Source: Candidatus Velthaea sp. (GTDB lineage: Bacteria > Vulcanimicrobiota > Vulcanimicrobiia > Vulcanimicrobiales > Vulcanimicrobiaceae). From it: 16,983 nucleotides of DNA. This document shows positions 7,723-12,871 of the stretch, in pieces; the stretch's first letter is position 1, and each line of letters begins with the position of its first letter. The notes beneath the pieces were generated by a model. It searched no databases. It worked only from the letters and a program-made list of their open reading frames with translations, and was not told the DNA's origin. Position numbers and translations under genes: made by a program. The stretch is from the NCBI GenBank assembly GCA_050012475.1, contig JBEKHC010000103.1, forward strand, positions 1 to 16,983, read 5' to 3'.

Positions 7723-8784
7723 ATGATTCTGCACTTTGACTTGGATGCGTTCTACGCGGCGGTCGCCCAGCGCGACGACCCGGCGCTGCGCGGCAAGCCG
7801 CTGGCGGTTGCGGGCAGCGGCCGGCGCTCCGTCGTCCTCACCGCCTCGTACGAAGCCCGGCCCTACGGAGTGCGCTCGGCGCTGCCGCTCTACAAGGCGC
7901 GAGCGGCCTGTCCGCAGCTCGTGGTCGTGCCGCCCGACTTCGCGAAGTATCGCGCCGCCTCGCTAACCGTGTTTGCGATCTTCGCCGACGGCGCCGAAGC
8001 CGTTGAGGGCCTGTCGCTCGACGAGGCGTTCGTGGCGATCGCCGGCGACTCGGTTGCCGAAGCGGTGGCGTGGGCGGCGCGCGTTCGCGTCCGCGTTCGC
8101 AGCGAGGTCGGGCTGACGATCAGCGCCGGCGTGGCGAGCGGAAAGATGGTCGCGAAGATCGCCTCCGATTCGTGCAAGCCCGACGGACTGGCGGTCGTCG
8201 AACCGGGCACCGAGGCGGCGTTTCTGGCGCCGCTTTCGGTTTCCCGGCTCTGGGGAATCGGCCCGAAGACCCAAAGCCGGCTCGAAGCGGCGGGTGTGCG
8301 CACGATCGGCGACGTCGCCGCACTCGACGACGCGGGGGCCTTCGCGCTGCTCGGACGCTGGGGCCGCGAGGCACGCGCGCTTGCCCGTGGTATCGACGAC
8401 CGGCCCGTGGACGGGACTCGCGAGCGAAAATCGATCTCGACCGAAGAGACCTTCGAGTACGACCTGCACGACGAGGAGCGCATCATCGCGCTCTTGCGCA
8501 GCCAAGCCGATGAGATCTCCGCCGACCTGGCGCGTCTGGGCCTGCGCGGGAGCACGATCGGGGTCAAGATCAAAGCCGCCGATTTCAGCATTACGGGCCG
8601 TCAGACCAGCGTGGTAGTGCCGACCGATCGCGCCCAGGACATCTTCGCTGCCGCCCTCCACTGCTGGCAGCGCAGCGAGATGGCGGGCAAGCCGATCCGC
8701 CTGCTGGGGACGCGGGTCGCGTCGCTGAGCGAGGAAACCCCGCCGGAGCTGCCCCTTTTCGGGCCCTCCGGGGGCTCGTTGTAG
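7723..8784 (+). CDS. dinB: DNA polymerase IV (Y family)
   Basis: ILHFDLDAFYA, ASYEARPYGVRSA, SLDEAF, KMVAKIASDSCKPDG, LWGIGPKT, KSISTEETF and IRLLG; ends in a clamp-motif-like ELPLF. Confidence 0.93.
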   Translation: MILHFDLDAFYAAVAQRDDPALRGKPLAVAGSGRRSVVLTASYEARPYGVRSALPLYKARAACPQLVVVPPDFAKYRAASLTVFAIFADGAEAVEGLSLDEAFVAIAGDSVAEAVAWAARVRVRVRSEVGLTISAGVASGKMVAKIASDSCKPDGLAVVEPGTEAAFLAPLSVSRLWGIGPKTQSRLEAAGVRTIGDVAALDDAGAFALLGRWGREARALARGIDDRPVDGTRERKSISTEETFEYDLHDEERIIALLRSQADEISADLARLGLRGSTIGVKIKAADFSITGRQTSVVVPTDRAQDIFAAALHCWQRSEMAGKPIRLLGTRVASLSEETPPELPLFGPSGGSL

Positions 8785-8891
8785 CGGTAACTACTGCTGG
8801 CGCGAACCCCGAAGGCGCTAAAATAAGACACTACCACCACAGAGATACCAACCGACCCATAAGCGTGCCGCTCTCGGAGGGGATTAAAATA
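8783..8891 (+). promoter_or_regulatory. Candidate promoter, leader and RBS of the light-harvesting cassette
   Basis: Imperfect palindrome AGCGGTA-AC-TACTGCT (8783-8798), -10-like TAAAAT (8819-8824), A/C-rich leader, and SD GGAGGGG (8876-8882) 9 nt before ATG 8892. Confidence 0.5.
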
Positions 8892-9068
8892 ATGGCAATT
8901 GCTTCAGAAGCCGTCGAGGTAATCGGTAACGATCGCGTTCCCGAAAGTTACCGCGGTTTCTTCGACAACGCGGATTGGACGCTGCACTCGATCGTCGTGC
9001 AGGGTTCCTGGATATTCCTGATCCTGGCGATCGTCGTTCATTTCCTCGCCATCGGCGCGTTGCATTAG
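8892..9068 (+). CDS. pufB: Light-harvesting antenna beta polypeptide, Chloroflexus/Roseiflexus (B808-866-like) type, 58 aa
   Basis: DRVPESYRGFFDNADWTLHSIVV...AIVVHFL closely follows the Chloroflexus beta pattern as I recall it ([23 protein letters not shown]...AIAHLL). His32 and His50 are 18 residues apart, the hallmark beta His-18/His0 pair, with one transmembrane helix and AxxxH. Strong SD supports ATG 8892. Symbol denotes family; orthology to core pufB is unproven. Confidence 0.88.
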   Translation: MAIASEAVEVIGNDRVPESYRGFFDNADWTLHSIVVQGSWIFLILAIVVHFLAIGALH

Positions 9069-9081
9069 GAAGGGTGAGAAA

Positions 9082-9309
9082 ATGTCGTACGATCCCATTA
9101 TAGGCTTTTCAAGAAGCGGCGGACCGAAGTACCGCGATCATATCCATGACTTCAAAGCTTCCGTGTTCGGCTATGCAGCCAGCGGAGTCGCGGCGATGAT
9201 CATCATTCACTGGGTTGTCCTAACGTCGCCGTTAGGGCATGCGAAATGGCTCGACGTTGTCGGCGCCGGCGTGCAGACGACAACGACGTCGACCACCGTC
9301 ACCAAGTAG
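9082..9309 (+). CDS. pufA: Light-harvesting antenna alpha polypeptide, Chloroflexus/Roseiflexus type, 75 aa
   Basis: DFKASV...AMIIIHWVVLTSP...WL parallels the Roseiflexus/Chloroflexus alpha pattern as I recall it (EFRTSV...ALLIHFVVLSS...NWL). One transmembrane helix with BChl-ligand His43; SD AGGAAGG; canonical beta-then-alpha gene order. Symbol denotes family only. Confidence 0.82.
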   Translation: MSYDPIIGFSRSGGPKYRDHIHDFKASVFGYAASGVAAMIIIHWVVLTSPLGHAKWLDVVGAGVQTTTTSTTVTK

Positions 9310-9339
9310 CAACCGCCGGTCCCGGTGGATTACGGGCAT

Positions 9340-9383
9340 TGAAGTGGTGTCGCGCCGGACGGCGACGGCACCACTTCATTATT
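9340..9383 (+). terminator. Long hairpin after the alpha gene (terminator and/or mRNA 3' stabiliser)
   Basis: TGAAGTGGTG(9340-9349) pairs perfectly with CACCACTTCA(9369-9378), continued by TCG/CGG and CGCC/GGCG with a 1-nt bulge and GGAC loop; followed by TTATT. Confidence 0.75.
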
Positions 9384-9423
9384 CGGGCCGCGCATCGCTG
9401 ACGTGCGTGGAGCGAAGGGAGTT

Positions 9424-10137
9424 ATGGATCACAACGGGCAGACGCCGTATACCGACGAGCTCAAGGCCGACACCACCGGCGGCTTCGCGAGCATCGAATT
9501 CGCGGAGAACCCGGAGCCGCGTTGCGCTTGCGTGCTGCTTCTCGATACCTCGGGTTCAATGCAGGGCGCGCCTATCGAGCAGCTCAACCTGGGGCTGCGT
9601 TCGTTCAAGGATGAGCTGATGTCCGATTCGCTCGCGGCCAAGCGGGTCGAGGTCGCGGTCCTGACGTTCGGCGATCAGGTTCGGCTGGCTTCGGACTTCA
9701 CCGACGCCGCCGGTTTCGAGCCGCCGCTGCTGACCGCCGGCGGACTGACGCCGATGGGCGCCGCGATCTGGGATGCGCTGGGCCGGCTCACCGCGCGCAA
9801 GGAAACCTATCGCACCAACGGCGTGGGCTACTACCGGCCGTGGGTCTTTCTCATTACCGACGGCGAGCCCACCGACGAGTACGAAACCGCCGCGGCCAAA
9901 GTTCGCGAAGGCGAAGGGAAGAACGCTTTTTCGTTCTATGCCGTGGGCGTCAGCGATGCCAACATGATCAAGCTGGCCCAGATCGCACCGGTCAATCGCC
10001 CGCCCGTCAAGCTCGACGGCTTGCGCTTTCGCGATCTGTTCGTGTGGCTCTCCAAATCGATGCGGACCGTCTCGCATTCGGCGATCGGGCAGACCATCTC
10101 GCTCGAACCTCCGGGTTGGATCACGACGCAGGCGTGA
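9424..10137 (+). CDS. terY: TerY-like von Willebrand factor A domain protein (YegL-like), TerY-P triad
   Basis: FAENPEPRCACVLLLDTSGSM (MIDAS DxSxS), GGLTPMG, YYRPWVFLITDGEPTD and FRDLFVWLSKSM. SD GAAGGGAG supports ATG 9424. Confidence 0.9.
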   Translation: MDHNGQTPYTDELKADTTGGFASIEFAENPEPRCACVLLLDTSGSMQGAPIEQLNLGLRSFKDELMSDSLAAKRVEVAVLTFGDQVRLASDFTDAAGFEPPLLTAGGLTPMGAAIWDALGRLTARKETYRTNGVGYYRPWVFLITDGEPTDEYETAAAKVREGEGKNAFSFYAVGVSDANMIKLAQIAPVNRPPVKLDGLRFRDLFVWLSKSMRTVSHSAIGQTISLEPPGWITTQA

Positions 10138-10907
10138 GCTGGCGTTACGTTGACGCGTTCGCTGTCGGCTTATCGCATCGTGAGAATGACACGCCTTGCC
10201 AAGACCGCTGCGCGGGCGCGGTTATCGCGAGCCTGGACGGCGGCGATGTTTTCGTGACGGTCGTTTCGGACGGAGCCGGCAGCGCCGCTCACGCCGAGCG
10301 CGGTGCGCAGATCGTCTGCGACGTCCTCGCCACGGTTGTGGGTGAAGCCGTTCGCGCGAGCAGCGATCTCGACCGCATCGGCGATGAACTGGTGCGCTCG
10401 TGGTTCTTGTGCGCGCGTGAAGCCGTACGCGAGGAGGCCCGTGCGCTCGACGGCGAGATTCGCGAGTATGCGGCTACCGCGCTGCTGGCCGTCGCGAGCG
10501 ATCATCAAACCCTATGCGCACGGATCGGCGACGGCGGCATCGTATTGCGGCGGACACCCGCCGATGCTTTCGAGGTCGCGCTCTGGCCCGATAGCGGCGA
10601 ATACGCCAATCAAACCTATTTCATCACCGACGACGCGGCCGCCGAGCGAATCGCGATCGCGCGTTTCGACGACGTGTCGGATGTCGTCGCCTTTTCCGAC
10701 GGGCTGCAGAACCTCGCTCTCGAGCAAGCAACGCGCACCGCGTTCCCGCCGTTTTTCTTGCCGCTGGTCGCGGCCGTGCGCCGCGCGCGCGACACGAACG
10801 GCAAGCTGCACGCGGAGCTGGTCGACTATCTCAACTCGCCGGCCATCAACGAACGGACCGCCGACGACAAGTCGCTCGTTGTCGGCTGCCGAATCACGCC
10901 GACATGA
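10134..10907 (+). CDS. PP2C-like Ser/Thr phosphatase (YegK/PphC-like), TerY-P triad
   Basis: Start GTG 10134 overlaps the terY stop (GTGA), giving MSWRY...GLSH...PCQD. Motifs VSDGAGSA, IGDG, GEYANQTYF, FSDGLQ and ERTADDKSL. The ORF-track extension from 9840 is a shadow of terY. Confidence 0.9.
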   Translation: MSWRYVDAFAVGLSHRENDTPCQDRCAGAVIASLDGGDVFVTVVSDGAGSAAHAERGAQIVCDVLATVVGEAVRASSDLDRIGDELVRSWFLCAREAVREEARALDGEIREYAATALLAVASDHQTLCARIGDGGIVLRRTPADAFEVALWPDSGEYANQTYFITDDAAAERIAIARFDDVSDVVAFSDGLQNLALEQATRTAFPPFFLPLVAAVRRARDTNGKLHAELVDYLNSPAINERTADDKSLVVGCRITPT

Positions 10908-12871
10908 CCAAACTGCGCGCCGACGGCGGCGCCGTCGTGAGTTTGGGCAAGCAGCTCGGCGCGGGCGGCGAGGGCGTGGTTTTTCGCATCAACGAAGAAC
11001 CCGCGAGCGTCGCCAAGATCTACTCCGAACCGCTCAAGCCGCGGCAAGTCGCAAAGCTGCGAGCCATGGTCGACGTCGCCGACGATCCGTTGCGGACGGT
11101 CGCCGCGTGGCCGACAGCGATGCTCTATGCCGGCTCCATTCCCGTGGGGTTCACGATGCCGCTGGTTCCGGCGCAGCGGCCGCTGCACGAGTTGCTGGGC
11201 CCGCGCAGCCGCCACGAACTCTTTCCCAACGCGCACTGGTCGTTTCTCATTCACACCGCGCGCAATTTAGCGCGCGCCTTCGGCGTGCTGCACGAGCGCA
11301 ACGTCGTCATCGGCGACGTGAACTCCAACAACATCGTGGTGTGCGGCGATTCGACCGCGAAGCTCATCGATTGCGACAGCTTCCAGTTCGCGGCCAAGAG
11401 CGGCGTGTTCCGCTGTAACGTCGGTGTGCCCGACTATCAACCGCCCGAACTGCAGCACGGTAATTTCGACGCCGTCGACCGGCTGCCCGAACACGACCGG
11501 TTCGGGCTCGCGGTGGTGATTTTCCAGCTGCTCTTCGTGGGCAAGCACCCCTTCGCCGGCGTCTTGCCGCCCGGCGCGCCCGGCGACGGAGCGATCGGCG
11601 CCAACGTTGCGGCGAAGCGCTTTTTTTATGGTCCGCACGCGCGCCGCCGCGGCTTGCGTCCGCCGCCCGGAAGTCCGACGCTGGCCTCGCTGACGCCCGA
11701 AGTGGCGGCGCTTTTCTCGCGGGCGTTTTTGGGCGAGCCCGCGCAGCGCCCGAGCGCCGCGGAGTGGGACGCCGCACTCGAAGACCTTGCCGGGCGGGTC
11801 GTGCGCTGCGCGAAGAATCCGCTGCACCGCCATCTGCGCGACGCGCGCTGCCCGTGGTGCACGCTGGCCCGGCGCGGATTGCACTATTTCATGCCGCCGG
11901 GCGCGCGGCGTGAGGAATACGGCCTCGACGAATCGATTTGGCAGCACGGCTCGAACGCCGAGGTCGAGAAGGTCTGGGCAGAAATCACGGCTGTCGCGCC
12001 ACCGCCGGCGCTCAACGCGGGTCTGGGCTCGGGCCGAACCTACCGCCGGTCGCCCGTGCGGCTCTGGACGCCGCGCTTGCGCGTCGCGTACGGAGCCGGC
12101 GCGGTGGCGATCGTCATCGCCGCCGTCGTCGCCACGCTGGCCGGCTGGCCGATCCTCATCCTTCCGCTCCTTGCCGGCGGATTCGCGCTGGCGGCGGTCA
12201 ATCGGCCCGACGCGCGCGCGATCGTGTCGCGCGCTTGGCGCCGGCAATCCGAGTTGCGCAAGGCGTTTGCCTCGGCCCAGCGGGAATGGGAGCGCGAAGC
12301 GCGCGCGACCTGCTTCCATCAAGAGCGGGCCCGGCTCGCGCAGGTGCGCAACGATCTGCTCAATCAGCGGCGGCGCTACGAAGCCGACATCGCGGCGGTC
12401 GAACGCGACCGGCTGCGTCGTGAGTGGGCGGCCTTCCTCGAAAGCCGCATCATCGCCGACTGGCACTTGCGCCAAATCGATCCGCGCACGCGGGCGCGTT
12501 TGCGGGCATTCGGCATCGTCAATGCCGCCGACGTCACGCGCGAAAACCTGCGCCGGATTCCGGGCCTCTCACGGCACGCGCAGTTGTGTCTCACGGTGTG
12601 GCGGCAGAATATCGAGCATGAGTTCCAGCGCCGTCCGCCGCCCGGGCGCGAGGTGCGCGCGATCCATGCCGTCAAGCTGCGCCACTTGCGCGAACGCGCG
12701 GGGAACTGGTCGCGGCTGACGGGTCAAGCCGCCGAATTGCGGCGGCTGGCGCTGGAGATCGAGTCGCGCCGGCCCATGCTTCGCGCGCGCGCGGCCGAAC
12801 TTTCCGAAGCGCTGGCGCAGGCCGCCGCCGACGCCGATATCTCGCCGATTTTCTACAAGACGTGGACGTGA
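10904..12871 (+). CDS. YegI-like membrane Ser/Thr kinase with Cys/His cluster, transmembrane hairpin, coiled coil and HhH-like region, TerY-P triad
   Basis: LGAGGEG, VAKIY, AWP, IGDVNSNN, LIDCDSFQ, YQPPELQ, DRFGLAVVIFQLLFVGKHPFAG; CAKNPLH...CPWC; hydrophobic segment about 12083-12200; LRAFGIVNAADV. ATGA overlap with the phosphatase. Confidence 0.9.
   Translation: MTKLRADGGAVVSLGKQLGAGGEGVVFRINEEPASVAKIYSEPLKPRQVAKLRAMVDVADDPLRTVAAWPTAMLYAGSIPVGFTMPLVPAQRPLHELLGPRSRHELFPNAHWSFLIHTARNLARAFGVLHERNVVIGDVNSNNIVVCGDSTAKLIDCDSFQFAAKSGVFRCNVGVPDYQPPELQHGNFDAVDRLPEHDRFGLAVVIFQLLFVGKHPFAGVLPPGAPGDGAIGANVAAKRFFYGPHARRRGLRPPPGSPTLASLTPEVAALFSRAFLGEPAQRPSAAEWDAALEDLAGRVVRCAKNPLHRHLRDARCPWCTLARRGLHYFMPPGARREEYGLDESIWQHGSNAEVEKVWAEITAVAPPPALNAGLGSGRTYRRSPVRLWTPRLRVAYGAGAVAIVIAAVVATLAGWPILILPLLAGGFALAAVNRPDARAIVSRAWRRQSELRKAFASAQREWEREARATCFHQERARLAQVRNDLLNQRRRYEADIAAVERDRLRREWAAFLESRIIADWHLRQIDPRTRARLRAFGIVNAADVTRENLRRIPGLSRHAQLCLTVWRQNIEHEFQRRPPPGREVRAIHAVKLRHLRERAGNWSRLTGQAAELRRLALEIESRRPMLRARAAELSEALAQAAADADISPIFYKTWT

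Follow-up and report, generated by a model that had tools for sequence, protein, structure and literature searches.

A 16,983-nt contig from a genome of Candidatus Velthaea sp. (JBEKHC010000103.1, assembly GCA_050012475.1), referred to here as the window, carries at positions 8892-9309 a pair of small genes for light-harvesting (LH) beta and alpha chains of a class that is separate from the core antenna pair of its genome. We call this class type 2 and the ordinary core pairs type 1. We put the probability that the window pair is a functional second LH class within the puf regulon at roughly 0.9. As to the role of such a class we lean tentatively, and a little short of even odds, to an accessory antenna of its own, probably blue-shifted, a preference drawn from the sequences.

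We know of no account of how the antenna of the Eremiobacterota is built. The phylum is the third known lineage with type-II reaction centers (RC) (PMC6664022; for this and the other papers given by PMC number, statements refer to the portion of the text that was available). The paper on Vulcanimicrobium alpinum names, in that portion, a single puf operon, with one entry each for pufA and pufB in its Table S8 (PMC9758169), the available part of Ward et al. (2019) mentions only puf2A/puf2C, and a 2025 review gives only bands at 798 and 868 nm. A preliminary description of the window had supposed an undescribed antenna, and this agrees with the full-text literature searched, which nowhere describes a second LH pair for Eremiobacterota; the supplementary PufA tree in PMC11194577 (Fig. 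S19) was outside the scope of that search and might include such sequences.

Databases give a similar picture. In V. alpinum the type-2 alpha chain (WPS_06640) is hypothetical or uncharacterized, and the beta chain (WPS_06630) is hypothetical at NCBI and a 'Light-harvesting protein' at UniRef. Type-2 alpha chains form 46 clusters at 90% identity, none with a Pfam domain and all named hypothetical or uncharacterized except for a single stray 'repressor of nif and glnA expression'; at 50% identity they come down to just 7 representatives among 1.84 billion proteins. Automatic annotation has reached the beta chain only.

With a second, conserved class of subunits in which the pigment-tuning residues are altered, the Eremiobacterota antenna is more complex than has been assumed. 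An accessory ring with an origin separate from those of LH2 and the Gemmatimonas ring LHh may be part of it. Because cultured V. alpinum carries the class (WPS_06630, WPS_06640), the question is directly testable. A near-unique promoter palindrome, together with a regulator gene after pufC, offers a first handle on the control of photosynthesis genes in the phylum.

A second pair beside the ordinary puf cluster

The genome (5.36 Mb in 204 contigs, 93.8% complete, 5.3% contamination), of which the window is contig C103, has its core cluster on contig C88. There an amine-oxidase-family gene resembling phytoene desaturase is followed in order by phytoene synthase, a 62-aa beta chain, a 61-aa alpha chain, pufL, pufM and pufC, and then by a CRP/FNR-family regulator, an ADH_N-domain gene, a NifH-like gene that is a bchX candidate, and a BchY match of 391 bits. 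From the gene content of C88, the organism is a type-II phototroph whose core cluster is an ordinary one. The preliminary description had left room for the window pair being the only one in the genome, and simply its core LH1, or for a genome without genes for bacteriochlorophyll (BChl) synthesis; the puf cluster refutes the former, and BChl genes are present, as the BchY match and the bchX candidate show. Both pair classes also occur in G003, a genome of the same genus with the same order of dinB, pair and VWA gene, and in a complete one-contig genome (G027), where they lie 1.9 Mb apart.

Searching 401 genomes of the phylum with the window beta chain gave 39 matches in 29 genomes. One genome (G251) was left out, its weak match (E 0.0065) lying in a short locus without alpha or pufL. 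In the remaining 28 genomes every matching beta gene is followed by an alpha gene, and pufL follows all pairs except five, namely that of the window and those at G003:C91, G306:C9, G377:C17 and, at 658 kb, G027 (L015-L019). A set of diagnostic features is common to these five and to the first of two tandem pairs in G238: the alpha chain has the form GGPKYR-x-x-IHDF[KR] and is without the RRxYNFRA start, the KYNW (Trp at +11 from the ligand histidine) and the NPAPGAK end of the core alpha, and the beta chain, which has no W-x-W-[RK]-P-W tail (Trp at +9), ends 7-9 residues past its ligand histidine. Type 2 was found in 6 of the 28 LH-bearing genomes, all six of which also have pufL, and one of these carriers is the complete genome that holds the proteins of cultured V. 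alpinum. Two of the four genomes in the genus (G001, G002) have kept dinB and lack, at the DNA level, both the pair and the VWA-PP2C block.

An LH phylogeny, which had been suggested as a check on the pair, places it in a separate, conserved class. From 73 pairs, metagenome loci included, 19 identical ones were merged and 3 truncated ones dropped, leaving 51 unique beta+alpha pairs. In the unrooted maximum-likelihood tree 23 type-2 pairs are set against 28 puf-linked pairs with 100/100 support, across a branch 1.44 changes per column in length. Two subgroups make up type 2: that of the window (17 rows), in which the alpha chain ends SPxGHxKW, and a second, including the V. alpinum form, in which it ends GDPTLxH. 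The beta profile gave 85 clusters in a search for an outgroup with which to root the tree; those named by taxon were all Eremiobacterota and most were nameless, so that it yielded no usable named outgroup.

The ratio of nonsynonymous to synonymous substitution (dN/dS) is 0.088-0.230 for beta (8 of 9 ortholog comparisons computable) and 0.164-0.288 for alpha (7 of 9), with synonymous divergence (dS) near saturation. The type-2 genes are under purifying selection. Because orthologs occur in other genomes and metagenomes, and because dN/dS lies at 0.09-0.29, the pair is not a product of chance.

LH identity and pigment ligands

The beta and alpha reading frames (Table 1) are the two small open reading frames (ORFs) that the preliminary description had picked out; both were found, in the order beta-alpha, with one hydrophobic stretch per chain. 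Their similarity to LH polypeptides, on which that description depended, is present. The Pfam family it had named recognizes half of the pair: the beta chain scores 24.8 bits against LHC PF00556 (cut-off 23; 24.5 bits in the genome scan), and the alpha chain has no Pfam match at E<=10. Profiles built from the window chains and five orthologs reach further. With the beta profile, the LH beta chains of Roseiflexus (E 1e-9) and Chloroflexus (E 6e-9) are found, and proteobacterial LH1 and LH2 chains score far below those of Chloroflexota (LH2 at E 0.001-0.3). The alpha profile matches the LH alpha chain of Roseiflexus castenholzii (5yq7_T) at E 0.0059, in an alignment of 35 positions with the ligand histidine among them, and the genome's own core alpha matches the window alpha at E 0.007 with 37% identity. 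Of the original label, 'Chloroflexota-type', the part that survives is that the nearest solved relatives are Chloroflexota chains; the lineage itself is Eremiobacterota, and the window chains are not Chloroflexota chains as such. The closest named records of the window-type alpha are metagenome-assembled genomes (MAGs) of Vulcanimicrobiota/Eremiobacteraeota and V. alpinum, as the early guess at the organism had it.

The histidines that had been read as BChl ligands are invariant, beta H32 and H50 in 23 orthologs and alpha H22 and H43 in 22, and beta H32 aligns with the histidine of the Roseiflexus beta motif WLVH. In Roseiflexus, conserved histidines on both sides of the membrane bind two B880 and one B800 (PMC10516601). 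By comparison, alpha H43 and beta H50 are putative B8xx ligands and beta H32 is a putative B800 ligand. Because these three are invariant and match the Roseiflexus ligands, it is likely that three BChl a are bound per type-2 alpha-beta unit. The window alpha has the motif GGPKYRDHIHDFKA, and alpha H22 stands 21 residues before the ligand histidine, where the core alpha has Tyr in the alignment. This position would place it on the cytoplasmic face, and it is a speculative site for a further pigment.

In the alignment of core pairs, alpha KYNW brings Trp to +11 and the beta tail W-x-W-[RK]-P-W brings Trp to +9. In proteobacterial LH1 it is tryptophans at these two positions that donate hydrogen bonds to the acetyl groups of BChl. 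The window alpha has its Trp at +13 and not +11 from the ligand histidine and is without the NPAPGAK tail, and the window beta ends at +8, with no Trp and no W-x-W-[RK]-P-W. The B800-820 forms of LH2 and LH3 have, like type 2, lost hydrogen-bonding aromatic residues near the BChl ligands. Hydrogen bonds to the C3 acetyl group of BChl tune LH absorption, and in the Gemmatimonas LHh a Trp hydrogen bond determines where the extra ring absorbs (PMC12817894). A blue shift of the type-2 unit is predicted because the alpha Trp+11 and beta Trp+9 donors are missing.

Promoter palindrome and candidate regulator

The comparison of upstream regions took in 50 unique pairs from the two classes and left out L065, which has only 67 nt of upstream DNA. 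The palindrome GTA[GA][CT]-N4-[AG]CTAC, usually extended to GTAGC-N4-GCTACAxC, precedes the beta gene in all 50 loci, at 70-162 nt before the beta start, and in most of the regions, by eye, a TAnnAT-like box stands about 21-24 nt beyond it. The flanking base, also compared by eye, is mostly that of TGTAGC in the window's subclade as against GGTAG in puf promoters. In a scan of both strands of the whole genome with a position weight matrix (PWM), the three highest scores were 22.4 bits, for the pufB site on C88, and 19.4 and 17.3, for the window site; the next was 15.6. The exact palindrome pattern has 13 strand matches in the genome compared with about 45 expected from base composition. In five other genomes a 15-nt pattern gave 12 matches at 11 sites, of which 8 precede all 8 LH operons and 3 are elsewhere, and a reversed control pattern gave 3-21 matches per strand per genome.

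A CRP/FNR-family gene (cNMP_binding and HTH_Crp_2 domains) is found directly after pufC in all six genomes checked (Table 1), and its protein has no FNR-type cysteine cluster. The palindrome resembles class II CRP/FNR sites both in its 5-N4-5 form and in its center, about 43 nt before the predicted transcription start; it also fits GTA-N8-TAC, which we take to be the form of NtcA boxes. We infer that the CRP-family protein is the obvious candidate to bind the LH palindrome. The regulator encoded after pufC would then bind at about -43 and switch on both operons together.

Exact palindromes that lie away from LH genes may mark extra members of the regulon. They are at G027:C1:2573696-2573710 (L046:3197-3211), which is 770 bp upstream of pufB in the opposite orientation, at G001:C5:5734, at G238:C27:178 and at G000:C2:47306, which is intergenic with no clear -10 box. 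Another exact palindrome, at C26:21889, is inside a large ORF and was set aside as probably due to chance.

Contigs assembled from RNA libraries of two studies match the pair at 99-100%. In one study, run X1 gave a 337-nt contig, 8888-9224, that extends without mismatch from the beta gene to the alpha gene, and another contig, 9195-9293, and run X3 gave contigs covering 8918-9040 and 8691-8837. In the other, run X2 gave 9145-9335 with two differences. Run X4 gave no contig, and runs with small word shares support no statement here on habitat or expression. The neighboring dinB and VWA genes are almost uncovered. Since assembled contigs may include DNA, these matches hint at transcription of the pair.

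Genomic position in other lineages

Neighborhoods were counted at the 18 type-2 loci whose upstream DNA extends for 3.2 kb or more. In 14 of them, several being near-identical copies, no puf gene is nearby. Three (L061, L071, L079) have pufBALMC head-to-head with the type-2 pair, as does the short contig L064, and in one (L056, G238) the type-2 pair stands in tandem before pufB, as it does in the short contig L084. The order in L071 is pufC-M-L-A-B and then, divergently, beta2-alpha2-VWA-PP2C-kinase, the downstream part of which is the window's order; among 17 loci compared, 8 have a VWA gene after the type-2 pair. Because L071 keeps the downstream order of the window beside a divergent puf operon, the window seems to represent the ancestral site, which the puf operon would have left, so that the orphan position would be derived. 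The pair was at first described as an orphan, which is right insofar as it lies outside a photosynthesis cluster here, a position we regard as peculiar to the genus; the term does not fit a class that is head-to-head or in tandem with puf elsewhere and that retains a puf-type promoter element here.

The block of TerY-like VWA, PP2C phosphatase and kinase-like genes extends over 9403-12871 in the window and over L071:4285-7867; it may reflect plain synteny or a functional link.

Comparison with known antenna systems

The closest system is type 1 of the same phylum, represented by pufB/pufA of V. alpinum (WPS_26270/WPS_26260) and the C88 pair. It shares with type 2 the beta-alpha order, the promoter palindrome, the three ligand histidines with the 18-residue spacing in beta, and the beta N-terminus VPExYR...DWxxH. 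It differs in forming a separate clan with 100/100 support, with 33-37% identity in alpha and about 59% in beta, and in being followed by pufL, which the five stand-alone type-2 pairs are not. The nearest solved chains to type 2 are those of Roseiflexus B800-880 and Chloroflexus aurantiacus B808-866 (PDB 5yq7, 8iug, 8ydm). These also have a cytoplasmic-side beta histidine besides the two periplasmic-side histidines and bind three BChl per alpha-beta unit (PMC10516601). They belong to another phylum, however, and are presented in PMC9243436 as the sole LH, forming the core ring, whereas type 2 is a second class beside a core pair.

Among systems with extra LH pairs, the Gemmatimonas pufBA2/LHh outer ring is likewise a duplicated puf-type pair in which alpha has diverged far more than beta (PMC12817894), but it derives from a proteobacterial LH1 in a gene cluster gained by transfer, and in type 2 beta also has its own form. 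Chromatiaceae with multiple pufBA (Allochromatium vinosum, Alc. tepidum) resemble the type-2 carriers in having several pairs per genome, puf-linked in some lineages; their products mix in a single 16-mer LH1 ring (PMC10861460). Proteobacterial LH2/LH3 (pucBA) is also a stand-alone beta-alpha operon outside the photosynthesis cluster and variably present among relatives. Type 2 is not a member of that family by sequence (E 0.001-0.3 for LH2 as against 1e-9 for Roseiflexus), and no PucC-family gene was found in the genome.

Function of the second class

We propose that the window holds a separately transcribed beta-alpha operon for a second class of BChl-binding LH subunits beside the ordinary pufBALMC core. 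In each alpha-beta unit, alpha His43, beta His50 and beta His32 would serve as BChl a ligands, as in Roseiflexus, with perhaps a further pigment at alpha His22, and the unit would absorb at a shorter wavelength than the 868-nm core. The type-2 subunits may then form a peripheral or outer ring and pass energy downhill to the core RC-LH complex. An accessory antenna of its own is the most likely use of the pair because the alpha chain is without the conserved ends of the core alpha, and four features fit it: the predicted blue shift, the diverged alpha without the core ends, the separate transcription unit and the patchy distribution. A fuller version, in which the ring has four histidine ligands per unit, with an extra cytoplasmic-side BChl at alpha His22, and is co-induced with the reaction center through one CRP-family regulator, is rather doubtful as a whole. 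If the accessory role is right, this would be the first accessory antenna, peripheral or concentric, made from chains of the Chloroflexota/Eremiobacterota type, and the third independent extra LH ring after LH2 and the Gemmatimonas LHh.

Several points weigh against this proposal. The type-2 class is so far known from genes and RNA-library contigs, and the blue shift, the pigment at alpha His22 and the pairing of regulator with operator are all inferred. The 5.3% contamination of the MAG means that co-residence of C88 and C103 rests on the pairing of the two classes in G003 and in the complete genome. Two of the 50 sites behind the PWM are the very ones it scored in the genome itself. RNA libraries can contain DNA, and one of their contigs (8691-8837) covers the end of dinB as well as the promoter. 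A search of the genome for PUCC (LhaA/PucC, PF03209) gave no match at E<=0.001, which is not proof of absence because the genome is incomplete (93.8%). V. alpinum carries a type-2 pair, yet its in vivo spectrum, in the available part of PMC9758169, shows only 798 and 868 nm, so that either the cells do not make the pair under those conditions or its absorption cannot be told apart spectrally. Finally, a mixed core ring would account equally well for the shared operator and for the linkage to puf genes seen in other lineages.

That mixed ring is the main rival, and it is a real though doubtful possibility: type-2 units would sit in the same ring around the reaction center, either in particular places, for example beside the opening of the ring or the cytochrome anchor, or in proportions that vary. 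The head-to-head arrangement with pufBALMC (L061, L064, L071, L079) and the tandem one before pufB (L056/L084) would suit it, as would the palindrome common to the type-2 pair and the puf operon, the V. alpinum spectrum without a third band (PMC9758169), a type-2 beta that is still about 59% identical to the core beta, and the precedent of Alc. vinosum, in which three pufBA pairs feed one 16-mer ring (PMC10861460). The alpha chain is harder to accommodate, being just 33-37% identical to the core alpha and without the RRxYNFRA and NPAPGAK ends, which are expected to matter for the fit in the ring and for contact with the reaction center or cytochrome; the long 100/100 branch between the classes, a promoter and terminator of the pair's own with no shared puf transcript, and the absence of type 2 from 22 of 28 LH-bearing genomes also speak against mixing.

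The missing alpha ends also tell against a conditional replacement, in which the type-2 pair would take over from the ordinary pair as the sole ring of the reaction center under some condition of light quality or intensity, oxygen or temperature, as a spectral or stability variant. A separate transcription unit would in principle permit separate regulation, the residues beside the BChl ligands differ, and the base flanking the palindrome is not the same (TGTAGC vs GGTAG). The shared operator argues, however, for co-expression and not alternation, and G238 has both pairs in tandem before pufL, with a site each; we regard replacement as unlikely. Very improbable is the remaining explanation, that the pair is an idle paralog, a decaying duplicate of pufBA, or that C103 was binned wrongly and carries the ordinary LH1 of another organism. 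Contamination of 5.3% over 204 contigs, an alpha chain that Pfam does not recognize, and a degenerate alpha-like remnant with Gln for the ligand histidine in L056 are what can be said for it. Against decay stand dN/dS of 0.09-0.29 (at saturated dS), the invariant ligand histidines, the conservation of Shine-Dalgarno boxes, operator and hairpin, and the RNA-library contigs that match the pair; against misbinning stand the complete one-contig genome with both classes 1.9 Mb apart and G003, of the same genus, with both classes and the same dinB-pair-VWA order. An accessory antenna remains the reading we prefer.

Features of the locus and minor observations

The features of the window pair and the candidate regulator gene are collected in Table 1. 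Purine-rich boxes resembling the Shine-Dalgarno sequence of beta precede all six type-2 beta genes compared. The hairpin after alpha has a folding energy of -42.4 kcal/mol (z -5.0), equaled by 0 of 200 shuffles; a hairpin after alpha reaches z <= -2 in 17 of 23 type-2 loci, with a T run after many of them. A sigma-70 consensus scan and a simple terminator scan of 8600-9500 called no promoter and no terminator, and the reading of a promoter is based instead on conservation across loci. The -10-like hexamer is not a full sigma-70 consensus match, and the transcription start taken from it is provisional. Of the flanking promoter and hairpin in the preliminary description, the hairpin is upheld and a consensus sigma-70 promoter is not; the conserved palindrome with its -10-like hexamer stands in the latter's place.

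Table 1. Positions of the type-2 genes, their signals and the candidate regulator gene
Feature	Position	Strand	Remarks
Type-2 LH beta gene	8892-9068	+	ATG 8892, stop 9066-9068, 58 aa
Type-2 LH alpha gene	9082-9309	+	ATG 9082, stop 9307-9309, 75 aa
Shine-Dalgarno sequence of beta, GGAGGGG	8876-8882	+	Read from sequence
Shine-Dalgarno-like box of alpha, GGAAGGGTGAG	9068-9078	+	Within the 13-nt beta-alpha spacer
Palindrome GTAGCGGTAACTAC, 14 bp, putative operator of CRP/FNR 5-N4-5 form	8781-8794	.	Cross-locus conservation and genome PWM scan
-10-like hexamer TAAAAT	8819-8824	+	24 nt past the palindrome; read from sequence
GC-rich hairpin, then ATTATT	9340-9378	+	Likely transcript end or stabilizer of the bicistronic unit
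CRP-family gene	G000:C88:7443-8123 (L087)		Orthologs G001:C5:497850, G002:C22:524843, G027:C1:2568919, G238:C27:62551, G377:C9:218028

The pair was originally said to have no photosynthesis genes around it in the window, and so it proved: the 16 larger ORFs are housekeeping or signaling genes by Pfam, none of them a photosynthesis gene. Upstream of the pair they include gcvP1/P2, NUDIX, scpA, scpB, a DEAD helicase, a methyltransferase, AP_endonuc_2 and dinB, and downstream VWA, PP2C, a weak kinase match and two ABC transporters. In the window the palindrome's first arm takes in the dinB stop codon, TAG (8782-8784); about 80 nt separate palindrome and stop codon in G003.

Two longer proteins, P0047 (212 aa) and P0051 (1149 aa, with 5 weak stretches), match the type-2 alpha profile and may be fusions, miscalled ORFs or chance matches. 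Upstream of the tandem pairs of G238, at L056:3332-3520 (+), is a third, degenerate alpha2-like frame, with Gln for the ligand histidine, that scores 29 bits with the same profile. Four genomes of a divergent Eremiobacterota group, G168 (L037, L047, L048), G033 (L038, L049), G007 (L040, L050) and G166 (L041, L051), have 2-3 copies of a beta-alpha-pufL stretch, tens to hundreds of kb apart and with beta and alpha identical between copies; in two of the G168 copies pufL is seemingly split into two frames.

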